The position numbers were made by a program, and so were the translations under genes. Positions 38,848 to 43,800 of a DNA stretch of 64,000 nucleotides are shown here, one piece after another (position 1 is the first letter of the stretch; the number at the start of each line of letters is the position of its first letter). The stretch comes from Candidatus Binatia bacterium (GTDB taxonomy: Bacteria > Desulfobacterota > Binatia > Bin18), in NCBI GenBank assembly GCA_963666315.2, contig CAXXHG010000020.1:9339-73338 (forward strand). Reading direction: 5' to 3'. Under the pieces are notes generated by a model. That model was given only the letters and a program-made list of their open reading frames with translations. It had not been told where the DNA came from and did no database searches.

Positions 38848-39675
38848 CTAGTCTGGCTTAGTCGCGGCAAAACGCAGCCGCACATAATCCGCCGTCCATT
38901 GCCCTTCAGCGTCACACAGGTCCGGCTGCAGCACGTTACGAATTTCATTCATGACCGCCGAGCGATCAGCATCCGGAACAGCGTTCAGAAAGCTTCCAGT
39001 GAAAATTTCGAGCCAGTCTCTGATATCTCCGGGTAACCGCGTTGGCCGAGGGATGAGTTCCATGGACGTGACTGTGTATCCGTGGGCTTGCAGCTGCTGG
39101 GTATATATTTCCGGAGTGGGGAAATACCACGGGTTAATCGGCTCTGGATCAATACCGCGAGACTGGAGCGCTTGATACACGGCGGCAACGATAGTCGCAA
39201 TATTCCCTGCGCCGCCGCATTCTGCCACAAACCGTCCGCCCGGCTTGAGCGCTTGCCACACCCCAGCAAGAACGGCGTCGCTGTGTTTCATCCAGTGCAA
39301 GGCGGCATTGCTGAACACCGCGTCAAACTCATTATCATACGAAAGCGCTTGGCCATCGACGACATGCGCGTCTAAACCCCGTTTGCGTGCGGCTTCGATC
39401 TGCTCAGCACTTCCGTCTACGCCAACAACGAGACAGCCAAAGGCCGCCAGTTTTTCCGTCAGCGCCCCATCCCCGCAACCCAGGTCGAGAATGCGCTCAC
39501 CGGGTTGTGGGTTCAGGAGTTCGACCACGGGCATCCCAAGGTCGGCCACAAAGCGAGCACTCCGCGCGTAGCGATCCGGGTCCCAGGTCTGACCTCGTCT
39601 TGTCTGACCTCGTATTGCTTGACCTTGTCGTGTTTGACTGTGTGTCGGCTGCGTGATGTCGGCTCCGTCTGACAT
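38848..39675 (-). CDS. Class I SAM-dependent methyltransferase (trans-aconitate methyltransferase-like)
   Basis: Motifs [31 protein letters not shown]; N-terminal 15-bp repeats. Confidence 0.9.
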
Positions 39676-40006
39676 GAGTCTCCCTAATCGTGAAGCCGGG
39701 GGTGAGTCAAGAGGGAAGAGGCAATCAGACTACCCCTACAAAGAAAAGGCTGGAGAAGCGCCGCCGATGCAGTAAGGTTTTCTACGTAGACTTGCGCCTC
39801 TGTCTCCGTATTTTTTCGGACGCGCTTCTCTTGTTCCCAGCAACCTCCTTTTGCATAGTGTTATTCGCATCATGCTATACTGAGACGCGACTGGGACATT
39901 AATCTGCCTATCATCCTTTGCTTACAATCTATCCGTTCTGCATATACGCGCAGCCTGGGTAAAGGCAGGTCCTGGCCTGAATTGATTTCTGTATGTACTG
40001 ACCGCC

Positions 40007-40705
40007 ATGCGCAGTTTGACCGGATAGCACGTCATCGAGCAGCTGTACGAGAGTCCCACCTCGCTGGTATACCGCGCCCAGCGCGAGAGCGAGCAGTTTT
40101 CGATCATCCTCAAAATCCTCAAAGAAGAGTACCCGAGTCCGGCCGAACTGGTGCGCTCCCGCCAAGAGTACGAGATCACGCACAGCCTGGAGCTCCCGGG
40201 CGTGGTCCAGGTCTACAGCCAGCAGCCCTACCAGAACACCTTAGTGATGGAGGTCGAGGACTTCGGCGGCCGGTCCCTGGATCTGTGGCTGCAGGAGCAG
40301 TCTTTTCCTGTGGTCGACGTCCAGCTGACGGAGACGCTGGGCCAGGTGCATGCGGCCAACATCATCCACAAGGACATCAATCCCGCTAACATCGTCTGGA
40401 ACCGCGAGACAGACACGCTCAAGCTGATCGACTTCGGCATTGCCAGCCGCCTGTCCCGGGAGACGCCGACCATCACCACGCCCCACCGCTTAGAAGGCAC
40501 GCTGGCCTATCTGTCACCCGAGCAGACCGGGCGGATGAACCGGGTGGCGGACTACCGCACGGATTACTACTCCTTGGGCGTGACCCTGTATGAGTTACTG
40601 ACCGGCCAGGTGCTGTTTGTGGGGGACGATACGTTGGCGCTGGTGCATGCTCATTTGGCCAAGCCACCCGTGCCACCGCAGGTGATCAAGGCGGCGATTC
40701 CCGAC
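40007..40705 (+). pseudogene. Ser/Thr kinase domain remnant of a hybrid STK-histidine kinase
   Basis: ATG at 40007 gives MRSLTG-TAG-HVIEQLYES...; motifs HKDINPAN, KLIDFG, GTLAYLSPEQTGRMNR; homology ends near 40700. Confidence 0.8.
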
Positions 40706-40707
40706 AG

Positions 40708-41980
40708 TTGGTTGAAAGTCCGATCAACCGGATATTGCAAGGAAGAACGAGTCTCCAGTTGGGCGAGCATACCGCCTTGCTCACCCGTGATAGCAAGGAG
40801 CGCGCGGTGGACGGGAGCGGTGCGCCGATTTACAGCGCAGACGGGAAGCTCAAAGGCGCGGTCATGGTTTTTAGCGATGCCACCGAGCAACGGCGCCTAG
40901 AGGAAGAGTTACGTATGGAAGCCCTGGTGCTGGAAAGCATGGCCGAAGGTGTTCAGATGGCAACCGAGGAGCGTATTATCTGTTTTACCAACCCGGCCTG
41001 GGATGCGATGTTCGGCTATGAACGGGGAACGTTGGTGGGACAGCATGTGTCCGTCCTCACGGCCGATCCCCCGGCAGAGCGTGCCCGGATTGCTGCAGAC
41101 ACCAAGGCACAGTTGCAGCGCGAGGGAGTGTGGATCGGTGAGTTTTCCAACTGCCGCAAGGACGGCAGTCAATTTCTATCCGCGGCCCACATCAGTGTGC
41201 TGGAGGAGATGGATAAGCACTACCGGGTATCGGTTCAGCAAGATATCACCGAACGCAAGCAGGCCGAACGAGAACTGCGCCGGGCGAAAGATTCAGCCGA
41301 AGCTGCAGACCGAATAAAGTCCGAGTTTTTAGCCACAATGTCGCATGAGCTCCGCACGCCTCTCAACGTCATCCTCGGGTATGTCGATCTGCTGCTGGAT
41401 GGGGCCTTCGGCGATCTGATCGATGAGCAGACGGAATGCGTCCGAGCCGTTTGAACTGATCGCTGCCATGCCGGAGTTGAGCCAGCTTGAGGCTGGTCGG
41501 TTACCCATAGAGATTCAACAGGTGCATCTTCCTGAGCTGCTGACAGAGATTCGAGCCGAGATCCAGGATACGCAAGAGCGGTCTAATATAGACTTTGAGG
41601 GGAAGATCGAAGCCGATCTGCCCCTCCTCCAGACCGATCCGGGCAAGCTGAAAATCGTTTTGAAAAACTTACTCAGCAACGCCATCAAGTTTACAGAACA
41701 GGGCCATATCACGATCGAGGTCCGCAGGGACCAGAGAGGAGTGGAGATTAGCGTGAGCGACACCGGTATCGGCATTCCTCAAGAGGCGCTCAGCCTTATT
41801 GTTGACCCCTTTCGTCAAGTCGACAGCTCAGCCACCCGCCAGTATAGGGGGACGGGCCTGGGACTCCATATTGTAAAACATCTCCTGGACACCTTGAGCG
41901 GGGAAGTGCGGGTGGAAAGTGTGGTCGGACAGGGCTCAACCTTTCACGTGAAGATGCCAACCCTCGCAACCCTCCCGACC
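40708..41980 (+). pseudogene. PAS sensor histidine kinase, broken between HisKA and HATPase
   Basis: PAS/PAC; [14 protein letters not shown] in ORF 40708-41454; NLLSNAIKFT, DTGIGI and GTGLGL in a different frame (41423-); start and linker appear deleted. Confidence 0.8.
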
Positions 41981-42194
41981 CGCGATGCCCTGGGGACATT
42001 AGGCTGCGACCCGACATTTTGCTCGGCCTCGCCCCAGACCTCCACTGCGCTGACAGGTCACTCTTCCGACGGCATGCAGCAGCCTGCTCCCTCTAGATCG
42101 TTGCAACGGACGTGTCTCGGTGCGAGTCCACACCCGCTTGCCGTTCAGCTCCTAGTGTGGCAATAGTCACAGGCGCAAGGAGCGCAAGGAGCGT

Positions 42195-42920
42195 ATGATG
42201 CACATCCCGCACGAGGCGTATCCGCCTGGATTTGCCGAATATCTGCAACCCCTGCTCGATGCCCGCCTGCGCTTTCTCGAAAACATGTCGGCAGTCGAAA
42301 AACGCATCTGCCACGGCATCATTGCCTCCTTTCCGCAGCTCGGACGAGGACCAACGGCGGCCGAGCTGGCAGAACGTACGACTCTCTCTCTAGATCATGT
42401 TGTGACTACGCTTACCCACCTGAGTACGCGTGACATGCTCAAATATGATGCGAAGACGGGCTGCGTTATTGCCCTCTACCCCTTCTCGGATGTGCCGTGT
42501 CCACATCAAGTTCAACTGGCCGGTACACAACGCCTGTACGCCATGTGACCCGGCGGAGCGATCGCCCTTCCCATCGTGTATGGGCCAGGAACCTCAGCAA
42601 CTGTTTTTTCTGAATGCACCCAGTGTCAGGCACCGATTCAGTTCGATATGACCGTCACCGAAGACGGCGCAGTAAGTTCCGCAGCGTCTACCGAAACCTT
42701 GCGCGAATGGGATCCTGTGTTCATTGATGCAGACCATACTCTACCGCATCTGCTGGATGGATTTTGACTCCGCGTGCAGTTCTTCTGTAGCGAAGAACAT
42801 TTCACCCAGTGGAAAACTGAGAATCCTGACGAAGAAGGATTTCTGATTACGTTCAGTCAAAGCGCACGGATCTGTCAGTCCTTCTATGGCGGCCTGTTAG
42901 AGACGTGTCGCAATCTATAG
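42195..42920 (+). CDS. Organomercurial lyase MerB-like protein with two predicted selenocysteines (TGA 42546 and TGA 42765)
   Basis: One frame of 242 codons: wHTH, ALYPFSDVPCPHQV, LYAM-U-PGGA, ECTQC, DGF-U-LRVQFFCSEEH...W; ends TAG 42918-42920; hairpins follow both TGAs. Confidence 0.78.
42566..42589 (+). promoter_or_regulatory. Candidate SECIS for the first UGA of the MerB-like gene
   Basis: CCCAU-cgugu-AUGGG stem-loop at +22 to +36, extendable by CCU/AGG. Confidence 0.45.
42779..42798 (+). promoter_or_regulatory. Candidate SECIS for the second UGA of the MerB-like gene
   Basis: Perfect 7-bp stem GUUCUUC-uguagc-GAAGAAC at +12 to +31; loop G at +20. Confidence 0.65.
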
Positions 42921-42968
42921 TGGAGTCTGGATCTTTCTCATATGCCTGAAGTAAGGAGTACATTATCC

Positions 42969-43646
42969 ATGGTCCATTTACTCATTGCCCTCAAACGCAA
43001 AGACGGTCTCAGTCGAGCTGATTTCTCTCGCCATTGGCGCGAAATACGTGCTCCGCTTGCCAAGCAAATGCCGGGGCTACGGCGTTATATTTAAAATCAT
43101 AGTCCGACTATCCTGAGCCGTAGACTCGCCTATGATGGCGTAGTGGAAATCCGGATGGATACTGAAGAGGCCATCACAGCCGCCTTTAATAGTAAGGAAT
43201 ACCGTGCTGGCGCGTACGCGGATGAACCGAACTTTGCAAATGTCAAAGACGTCGTTCGTCTTGTCACCGAAGATCATGTCCTGCACGCAGGTGAGGAAAG
43301 CAGCAGCCCTGAGCCGCGTATCAAACGGCTTTCTTTTATTAAACGGAAACCAGAATGGGACCGGGACGAGTTCTTTCGATACTGGAAAGACATACACGGC
43401 CCGATGGCGCTCGCGATGCCCGGCCTCCAACGTTAGGTGCATTGCCACGCCCTGCCCTCTGCGTATGAAAAGGGCGAGCCGCAGTACGACGGTGTGGCTG
43501 AGCTGTGGTTTGATACGCTTGGCGATCTCAACTTTACCCTGGCACGAGAAGAGTACAAAGAAGGCGCTCGGCCCGCTGGTCTCAAGTTCGTCGATCCAGA
43601 CAGTATGCTGACTCTCATCACTGAGGAATATCGGATCGTGTACTAA
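42969..43646 (+). pseudogene. Tandem EthD-domain protein with two premature stops
   Basis: MVHLLIALKRKDGLSRADFSRHW...LRRYI-TAA-NH...YDGVVEI; second domain KRKPEWDRDEFFRYWKDIHGP...LQR-TAG-VHCH...YDGVAELWFD; all one frame. Confidence 0.8.
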
Positions 43647-43800
43647 ATCAACAAAGCCTTTTGCCTCAATTAAGTCTTTCCTCCAAACTCCCGAAAATAG
43701 TCAATGAAGAGGGACTCCACTCCTGCCTGCCTGTTGTTCCGTCTCCTCCGGGGCTGTTCCTCACAGCAGAACTCACTCGATAAGGAAGGACGGCCATTTT

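Follow-up and report, generated by a model that had tools for sequence, protein, structure and literature searches.

A MerB-like gene of a Binatia bacterium with in-frame TGA codons at both metal-ligand positions and glycine in place of the catalytic aspartate

Introduction

In MerB, which cleaves carbon-mercury bonds, two cysteines (Cys96 and Cys159) bind the metal and an aspartate (Asp99) serves as proton donor. A MerB homologue that is also a selenoprotein is SaoL (NF040728), which, according to the available portion of the preprint describing it, is cut short in databases at a UGA codon, contains a single selenocysteine (Sec), as part of a Cys-Sec dipeptide at the site of MerB Cys159, keeps Cys99 and Asp102 at the first site, and marks a nine-gene SAO locus present in anaerobes only (Haft & Gwadz, bioRxiv 10.1101/2022.07.06.499078). 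Here we describe a MerB-like gene at positions 42195-42920 of the forward strand of a 64,000-nucleotide stretch of DNA (the window) from a Candidatus Binatia bacterium (assembly GCA_963666315.2, contig CAXXHG010000020.1). In this gene, both ligand positions are occupied by in-frame TGA codons and the position of the catalytic aspartate by a glycine codon, and we argue that the gene is probably intact and encodes a selenoprotein that adopts the MerB fold.

In the parts available of two reviews, from 2022 and 2026, SaoL is the only MerB entry, and the table of the latter gives it one Sec; nothing else is placed under MerB in the available part of a 2026 catalogue of 119 selenoprotein families. 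Our search of the selenoprotein literature found no MerB-like selenoprotein besides SaoL, and supplementary alignments may list more. A double-Sec, Asp-less MerB-like form is absent from the selenoprotein literature that we searched, and given that the catalogue, as far as it was available, holds no other MerB entry, the gene described here would represent a further selenoprotein family, with Sec at both ligands.

Results

Direct reading of 42195-42920 yielded a single frame of 241 codons, including the two putative Sec codons, which ends with a TAG at 42918-20 and has two TGA codons as its only internal stops, as stated in the original prediction made from the sequence of the window. No further stop or frameshift occurs within the 241 codons. 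Translation table 11 splits this frame into 42195..42548, 42576..42767, and 42774..42920. The first TGA (UGA1; 42546..42548, forward strand; Sec118) lies in the context LYAM-U-PGGA and is the equivalent of MerB Cys96, and the second (UGA2; 42765..42767, forward strand; Sec191) lies in the context LDGF-U-LRVQFFCS and is the equivalent of MerB Cys159. The read-through product matched the Pfam MerB family (PF03243) with an E-value of 4.9e-16 and 59.3 bits, above the cut-off of 27, over residues 97-231 and profile positions 1-125 of 126, while it missed the NCBIfam MerB cut-offs widely (50.6 vs 193 and 42.5 vs 200 for NF009710 and NF033555, respectively) and scored 35.5 against the SaoL model NF040728, for which the cut-off is 140.

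The proposal that both TGAs fall on the metal-binding cysteines of MerB was borne out by HMMER alignments to MerB2 (5c17, E-value 7.3e-9) and MerB (5c0t), which placed them on the two Cys columns, and by a 39-sequence superfamily alignment, in which P96, position 118, and position 191 were the only invariant columns. More distant homologues have Cys at the columns of the TGAs, with 25 Cys/Cys sequences aligned. Both ligand positions are UGA/Sec, the selenium analogue of Cys, which is chemically compatible with metal ligation, although Cys is the residue that defines the lyase. As also foreseen, the place of Asp99, three residues after the first ligand, is taken by the codon for Gly121 (42555..42557, forward strand), in a motif that is U-P-G-G in the window gene and U-[PA]-G-G throughout the eight loci of the clade described below. 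Residues 119-128, which form the helix following Sec118 in the structural model, contain neither Asp nor Glu. A CTQC motif (C141-T-Q-C144; 42615..42626, forward strand) had been regarded as an extra feature of this protein; it is present, with its first Cys aligned to MerB Cys117, but it is not specific to the clade, because CxxC also occurs in the canonical MerB of the same genome (LCTQCQ), in the xxE family (see below), and in many other relatives. The motif may have a structural role or bind a second metal.

AlphaFold2, run with the 39-sequence alignment, returned a model with a predicted local distance difference test (pLDDT) value of 96.1 and a predicted template modelling score of 0.91, in which Sec118 is located at the N-terminus of helix 119-128. 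The top 11 matches of this model in a Foldseek search of the PDB were all MerB or MerB2 structures, the best being 5c17 (E-value 6.9e-13, target-normalised template modelling score 0.77). As modelled, the product has the MerB fold.

Searching the source genome (G000) and 60 relatives (61 genomes) in six frames, we recovered orthologues from five congeneric genomes; they share 62-89% identity, and each match spans two TGA. In the codon alignment, TGA occupied both columns in 6/6 sequences (G000 and the five same-genus genomes). A scan of metagenome contigs with the N-terminal alignment returned two loci, one of them new, with UGA2 and the hairpins read only where DNA was available. When metagenome contig L103 and locus L114, from another genus of the same family, were included, TGA was found at both columns in 8/8 loci, so that homologues do retain TGA at both sites. 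L114 shares 54% identity and reads LYGM-U-PGGAIAI and IDRY-U-KRVQFFC at the two sites. As for chance, 20 other codons of the frame are one step from TGA, and two random TGA-creating changes would both hit ligand codons with a probability of 1/231, a figure that leaves the conservation in relatives out of account.

Ratios of nonsynonymous to synonymous substitution rates (dN/dS; Nei-Gojobori) were computed for nine pairs in three segments (before UGA1, between the TGAs, and after UGA2). They were below 1 in every computable segment, with a range of 0.03-0.57. Between G000 and its nearest relative, dN/dS was 0.25 before UGA1, 0.20 between the TGAs, and 0.03 after UGA2, and between G000 and L021 it was 0.14, 0.15, and 0.14, with synonymous divergence (dS) of 1.6-2.5. 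The highest value, 0.57, came from L020 vs L021 after UGA2 and from only 12 changes. Synonymous sites were saturated between subclades. Relaxed selection downstream of UGA1, which simple pseudogenisation would have produced, was not seen: dN/dS there is as low as upstream, and the codon alignment indicates that the frame 3' of each TGA is kept by selection while synonymous sites are saturated. In close pairs, dS was 0.17-0.47 downstream of UGA1 and 0.56-0.97 upstream, that is, two to four times lower downstream, and the lowered values reach beyond the hairpin windows. RNA structure over a wider region could account for this, as could recombination or codon bias.

Protein databases contain members of this clade as fragments. 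A word-index search for relatives of 132-422 amino acids at E ≤ 1e-5 returned none, while among shorter proteins the same search returned 26 fragments. The 15 N-terminal fragments that we fetched (52-98% identity) all end in ...YAM, just before UGA1, and the two fetched middle fragments, of 63 amino acids, both end in ...DGF, just before UGA2. An exhaustive HMMER search of 1.84 billion representative proteins gave 401 matches at E ≤ 0.001. Among the matches listed, 13 had at least 40% identity, all of at most 157 amino acids, and the best full-length relatives were ordinary MerB-like proteins of at most 35% identity. We fetched 9 of these 13: five N-terminal fragments (42-60% identity) end in Met at the position of UGA1, one further N-terminal fragment (P0030) diverges earlier in a frameshift-like manner, two middle fragments, likewise of 63 amino acids, end in DGF and DGL, respectively, at UGA2, and one C-terminal fragment begins just past UGA2. 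Neither protein search found a Cys form of the clade. Given that fragments extend down to 42% identity, the clade is wider than the eight loci whose DNA was read, and gene callers appear to break its members at the same TGA codons wherever they have been sequenced.

A SECIS-like (selenocysteine insertion sequence) hairpin follows each TGA. Hairpin 1 (42570..42584, forward strand; CCCAU-CGUGU-AUGGG) starts after a 21-nucleotide spacer from UGA1, and hairpin 2 (42779..42798, forward strand; GUUCUUC-UGUAGC-GAAGAAC), built from F-F and E-E codons, after an 11-nucleotide spacer from UGA2. Both loops have G at position 2. With apical loops that start 26 nucleotides (hairpin 1) and 18 nucleotides (hairpin 2) after the UGA, this arrangement fits what we take to be the published bacterial SECIS model. 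Both hairpins are retained in 7/7 aligned clade loci, in agreement with the expectation that homologues would share them. At the columns of hairpin 1, a sister double-Sec clade has CCCUU-CGUGC-AAGGG, that is, one compensatory A-U to U-A change, which arises via two amino-acid changes. The stem of hairpin 2 is identical in all seven clade loci, with the loops UGUAGC, UGUAGG, UCUAGU, UGUACC, and UGUCAU, and 6/7 of its pairs are kept in the sister clade, where the loop is UGGUC[GA].

The codons CCC, ATC, GTG, and GGG at site 1 and TTC TTC and GAA GAA at site 2 are invariant at synonymous sites. Among degenerate columns with an invariant amino acid, the codon was also fixed in 11/16 after the TGAs vs 5/51 elsewhere, and every stem codon belongs to the invariant set. 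This count used seven loci, L103 being dropped from the eight as nearly identical to L026. The 45 nucleotides after site 2 fold with a mean of -13.0 kcal/mol in the clade vs -5.6 kcal/mol in 23 Cys-type MerB genes and -2.3 kcal/mol in the Cys paralogue of G000. Taken together, the alignments make the putative SECIS element at site 2 well supported and the one at site 1 moderately supported. The original prediction of a stem-loop with a G-containing loop after each TGA was therefore correct, with the qualification that the one belonging to UGA1 lies 21 nucleotides away and has weaker evidence than that of UGA2.

The selenocysteine machinery on which such a reading depends is present in G000, an assembly of 47 contigs that is 92% complete. 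A tRNA-Sec gene (anticodon TCA) adjoins selA, selB scored 378 bits (cut-off 242), and selD scored 308 bits (cut-off 125). Within the genus, selA was found in 26/28 genomes, including all six carriers of the MerB-like gene. The selD match, at contig C28:39602-40519, sits in an open frame of 761 amino acids, much longer than plain SelD, which suggests a fusion protein. Genome-wide reassignment of TGA was considered and rejected: of 2213 long frames (stop to stop, 300 codons or more), 657 are terminated by TGA, so that TGA is a normal stop in G000 and an altered code can be excluded.

To place the gene among MerB-like proteins, we scanned one genome per species and searched 401 Binatia genomes, and the superfamily resolved into five groups. 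The first comprises 23 classical C-x-x-D ... C genes from actinomycetes and others, including the G000 paralogue, and the second comprises two C-A-M-E ... C genes. The third is a WFAQ-[C/U]-GFE ... RPFR-U family (E-type or xxE family) with 62 loci, some of them fetched twice. The fourth consists of two U-x-I-D ... F-U-RKSVFF genes, and the fifth is the clade of the window gene, with eight loci and U-[PA]-G-G ... U. In the WFAQ family (for example L061:5989-6666, L076:6010-6663, and L023:1369-2046 on the minus strand; within L051-L130), TGA occupies the second site in 62/62 loci, while the first site is TGA in Binatia and 'delta' metagenome-assembled genomes and Cys in Acidimicrobiia (including Poriferisodalis). 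Its motifs read WFAQ-[C/U]-GFEALA and RPFR-U-[AG]GMNLFRSEEH, and in six printed examples a 7-bp stem with a GGUC loop stands 12 nucleotides after the second TGA. Neither this family nor the window clade passes any model cut-off of NCBIfam release 20, and as far as that release and the literature searched show, the double-Sec lineages of Binatia other than the window clade are likewise uncatalogued.

A hand count of the 401 Binatia genomes gave 35 match rows in 32 genomes flagged as containing two TGA; TGA positions were checked for the 30 rows fetched (L105-L134), 27 of which carry two TGAs. They include a third double-Sec lineage in which the Asp is kept (L132:1489-2076, minus strand, and L134:1498-2130, plus strand), with U-G-I-D or U-A-I-D at the first site, F-U-RKSVFFWSEEH at the second, and hairpins positioned after both TGAs as they are in the window gene. 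Double-Sec MerB-like genes are thus widespread in Binatia, in at least three lineages, and are not unique to this locus; the window clade is the only one of these lineages without Asp or Glu. In a quick IQ-TREE analysis, the window clade was monophyletic, with a Shimodaira-Hasegawa-like approximate likelihood ratio test (SH-aLRT) support of 99, and fell in the Asp-type half of the tree (SH-aLRT 89), apart from the E-type family (SH-aLRT 100). Its grouping with the U-x-x-D clade was weak (SH-aLRT 76.5, which neither establishes nor rejects it), and the L132/L134 lineage is possibly its sister group. On the simplest reading, the ancestor of the clade would have had two Sec residues and the Asp, and the Asp would have been lost later.

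Two start codons are available for the gene. The second ATG (42198) matches the start of the orthologues and of a 98%-identical database fragment and is likelier to be the start than the ATG at 42195. A Shine-Dalgarno-like AAGGAG (42186..42191, forward strand) stands three nucleotides ahead of ATG 42195 and six ahead of ATG 42198, and the Shine-Dalgarno sequence is contained in a 9-nucleotide tandem duplication at 42173-42190 (GCGCAAGGA twice). In the contig of one sequencing run, a further 9-nucleotide insertion (GCGCAAGAA) is located at 42172, beside the duplication. No promoter or terminator was detected when 41800-43800 was scanned for them. We compared contigs from four runs with the window, and among the differences listed, none falls at 42546-48 or 42765-67; these contigs lend weak support to the TGAs not being assembly errors, because 65 differences are not shown. 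None of the runs listed as containing the stretch is on record as RNA. One run is labelled 'METATRANSCRIPTOMIC WGA', its RNA status being a guess, and its contigs, which span both TGAs, were not counted as expression.

The surroundings of the gene differ between G000 and its relatives. In L026-L030 the gene order is DegP, rhomboid, S-adenosylmethionine (SAM)-dependent methyltransferase (opposite strand), MerB-like gene, alpha/beta hydrolase, and EthD-EthD, followed by a MaoC dehydratase and a sodium:solute symporter, and the short contig L103 has the same rhomboid, methyltransferase, and hydrolase flanks (the start of the hydrolase is seen). In G000 the methyltransferase (38848..39675, minus strand), which is the divergent neighbour in the same-genus loci and is not beside L114, is separated from the MerB-like gene by a Ser/Thr-kinase-PAS-HisKA-HATPase gene (39982..42166, forward strand) that is split over four reading frames. 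This kinase segment has no counterpart at this position in relatives, L027 matching only its first ~340 bases. The contig of an independent run is identical over 41900-42870, so that at least the 3' end of the kinase is not a one-off assembly error. Downstream, an EthD-EthD pseudogene (42969..43646, forward strand) contains an in-frame TAA at 43092-94 and a TAG at 43434-36, where its orthologue has Gln and Tyr, respectively. While ~880-970 bp lie between the MerB-like gene and EthD in L026-L030, with an alpha/beta-hydrolase open reading frame (ORF) of 299-324 amino acids in L026 and L029, only 48 bp lie between them in G000, and the hydrolase had no tblastn match anywhere in that genome. One other run's contig has the same 48-bp junction, and another strain keeps 969 nucleotides there. 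The caveat that neighbouring genes are pseudogenes therefore applies to the kinase and EthD genes but does not extend to the MerB-like gene, which is intact and under selection.

At L114 the neighbours are unrelated (ABM monooxygenase, Uma2, and nucleotide cyclase), and the neighbourhoods of L114 and of four xxE-family (WFAQ) loci share no mer or metal genes, the four WFAQ loci having no mer genes among their neighbours. Given that the neighbours of L114 are unrelated, the gene appears to travel alone, and its neighbours say little on function. As noted in the original prediction, merA and merT are missing from the window, and we found no MerA-like or MerT match on the whole contig. A further MerB of G000, encoded without interruption and showing the classical CAID ... 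C arrangement, is located in a canonical mer cluster on contig C47 (C47:135519-139022; L024) together with MerR, a thioredoxin-like protein, MerT, and an HMA/MerP-like protein. MerT was found in G000 only on contig C47. No MerA in this 92%-complete assembly exceeded the TIGR02053 cut-off, the best match, on contig C18, scoring 395.5 vs 454.45.

Discussion

Conservation of both TGAs, dN/dS, and the selenocysteine machinery together argue that the gene is a real double-Sec MerB homologue without the catalytic Asp rather than a dead gene or two gene fragments, as originally proposed, and we consider it probable that it functions as a selenoprotein gene. Several observations weigh against this interpretation. 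The compared sequences are close kin, and the eight loci amount to perhaps four independent lineages; for the same reason, the Fisher p of 1e-5 obtained for codon invariance overstates. The gene occurs in only 6/28 genomes of the genus and is therefore dispensable. One orthologue (L027:6001-6722, the same as L018, genome G024) has a frameshift near codon 30 and Ser instead of the Cys after FF, and is possibly a decaying copy; its site-2 loop (UCUAGU) has no G in the first two positions, which, together with the frameshift, shows that individual copies can decay. The surroundings in G000 are themselves decaying, with the kinase gene split, EthD interrupted by TAA and TAG, and the hydrolase lost.

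The hairpins, too, leave room for doubt. Hairpin 1 has only 5 bp and is supported by conservation at synonymous sites and by one compensatory pair, seen between two clades. The 57 nucleotides after site 1 fold with -15.8 kcal/mol vs -16.4 and -18.5 kcal/mol in Cys-type genes, and folding energy at this site was rejected as evidence given that it does not separate Sec from Cys genes. Conservation at site 2 is partly forced by the conserved F-F..E-E residues, and because the stem is invariant, it offers no covariation. A permissive Rfam search of 42150-42950 returned no SECIS family, the only match being a chance viral pseudoknot (E-value 8.1). A search of G000 for a TGA-containing molybdopterin enzyme found none, and no second selenoprotein gene was shown in this genome. 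Finally, on the side of chemistry, protonolysis of the MerB type should suffer severely once the Asp is gone, and mercury held by two selenolates might never be released.

To yield the conserved product of 241 residues, translation has to continue past both UGA codons. SelB carrying Sec-tRNA-Sec would most likely recognise both hairpins as SECIS elements and insert Sec at both codons. By homology, the di-thiolate of MerB would then have a di-selenolate as its counterpart, located at the N-terminal end of a helix, and this site might hold soft metals, or organometals like methylmercury, with a tighter grip than thiols do. Selenols are mostly deprotonated at neutral pH, and for this reason the Asp could perhaps, and we say so with little confidence, be unneeded for ligand activation. 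With Asp replaced by Gly, the proton for carbon-metal cleavage would have to come from water or another residue, or the metal would only be captured and handed on. Release of mercury from two selenolates would be hard, favouring capture and hand-over, or else demethylation of very low flux and high affinity. In the available part of one study, selenium-based (selone) mimics of the lyase outpace the corresponding sulfur compounds in breaking Hg-C bonds (PMC11639659).

Given that a canonical Cys/Asp MerB is encoded in a mer operon elsewhere in G000, the paralogue probably does something different, and it is more likely to be a specialised high-affinity or different-substrate enzyme than a resistance lyase. 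If the protein is made, the chance that it is a carbon-metal lyase of some kind would seem a little short of even, and the rest is shared among a non-catalytic soft-metal binder, a redox enzyme, and other functions. A more specific proposal, which we hold to be rather unlikely as it stands, is selenium-dependent, Asp-independent breaking or capture of carbon-metal bonds, in which the two selenolates would capture an organometal, methylmercury or another, at picomolar concentrations as found in sea water and sediment, and demethylate it outside a mer operon and with no need for the Cys-Asp-Cys proton relay of MerB.

Among the alternatives, a double-Sec protein that is not a lyase but a very high-affinity sink, chaperone, or sensor for soft metals (Hg, Cu, Ag, or Cd) is the one that fares best, and we regard it as a tentative possibility. 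Such a role would agree with the replacement of the proton-donor Asp by Gly in every clade member, with the location of the gene outside a mer operon while the canonical MerB lies inside one, and with the existence in the PDB of natural and engineered MerB structures in which Asp99 is Ser (5c17 and 5c0t). Sec in SaoB/SaoC-type proteins may likewise act as a metal ligand, according to the available part of the 2026 review. However, a sink that works stoichiometrically would pay a high price for two Sec residues, none of the conserved neighbours is a transporter, reductase, or regulator, and the fold of the MerB substrate pocket is retained.

Alternatively, the two Sec residues could form a redox couple (diselenide/diselenol) acting on a non-metal substrate, with the neighbouring genes hinting at small-molecule metabolism. 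Methyltransferase, hydrolase, and EthD-EthD genes flank the gene in five same-genus loci, and a redox function is ascribed to most selenoproteins of prokaryotes in the available part of a review (PMC9312934). This neighbourhood, however, is not kept in the other-genus locus L114, G000 has kept the MerB-like gene intact but has lost or inactivated two of these three neighbours, and every solved structure of this fold in the Foldseek result is a metal-binding MerB, so we consider this function distinctly unlikely.

It is also conceivable that UGA1 is a true stop and that only the 117-residue N-terminal winged-helix part is made, the downstream part being conserved for another reason or through trace read-through with Trp or Cys. 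Exactly such a fragment is carried in database records produced by gene callers, the N-terminal part has weak matches to helix-turn-helix-type Pfam families, and the hairpin at site 1 is short. Nevertheless, the segments between the TGAs and past UGA2 are under purifying selection of the same strength, synonymous sites are frozen directly after both TGAs, the selenocysteine machinery is complete, the N-terminal part lacks most of the MerB domain (residues 97-231), and the full-length model is a compact MerB fold with a pLDDT of 96, all of which make a truncated product very improbable. That the gene is a Cys-type merB paralogue killed by two nonsense mutations is scarcely credible: although its neighbours are broken (kinase, EthD, and lost hydrolase), TGC or TGT is a single step from TGA, and the distribution is patchy (6/28 genus genomes), both TGAs persist in 8/8 loci down to 54% identity and in fragments down to 42%, dN/dS after UGA1 is 0.03-0.57 at saturated dS, the 241 codons are free of further stops and of frameshifts, the stops of the neighbours are TAA and TAG and absent from relatives, and chance placement on both ligand codons has the low probability given above (1/231).

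If the gene encodes a double-Sec protein as we propose, several consequences follow. Members of the clade, split by gene callers, are invisible in protein databases and would be missed by the merB surveys used to judge the methylmercury-degrading potential of environments, which bears on merB counts in marine metagenomes, where, by run labels only, near-identical sequence occurs. The clade also represents a natural experiment on the MerB mechanism, in which both thiols would have become selenols and the proton-shuttling Asp has been removed. If cleavage of the Hg-C bond is retained, selenols of low pKa would make the Asp dispensable; if there is no cleavage, the MerB scaffold would have been re-used for tight capture of soft metals. 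Either outcome bears on the antagonism between mercury and selenium. If the Asp-independent demethylation outlined above, which we hold to be rather unlikely, did take place, it would, together with the Sec-bearing lineages of Binatia and Acidimicrobiia, represent an unrecognised selenium-linked organometal turnover in marine bacteria.

Compared with known and related systems, the window clade shares TGA at both ligands and a second hairpin built from F..E-E codons with the other double-Sec lineages, which, however, have an acidic residue three positions after the first ligand (U-x-x-D in L132 and L134, U-x-x-E in the WFAQ family). SaoL, as far as described in the available text, differs in that the window gene has two Sec residues, F-U rather than C-U at the second site, and U-P-G-G without Asp. 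Moreover, no SAO-type ABC-transporter or efflux components were found by Pfam among the ORFs of the 38.8-45 kb region or in the orthologous loci, a comparison in which the Sao models were not searched. The natural MerB2 (5c17), which is the best match in both sequence and structure, and the engineered MerB D99S (5c0t) also lack the Asp, but have Ser in its place and Cys ligands, whereas the window gene has Gly and two Sec. We take these Asp99-to-Ser forms to be copper-binding and poor lyases. With MerB itself (EC 4.99.1.2, PF03243; 1s6l, 3f0o, and 3f0p), the predicted protein shares the Pfam domain, the fold, the two ligand positions, a winged-helix-like N-terminal part, and an FFxS..H motif that follows ligand two. 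It departs from MerB in having Sec/Sec instead of Cys/Cys, Gly instead of Asp99, a location outside a mer operon, and a conserved N-terminal extension (YPPGFA..QPLLDAR).

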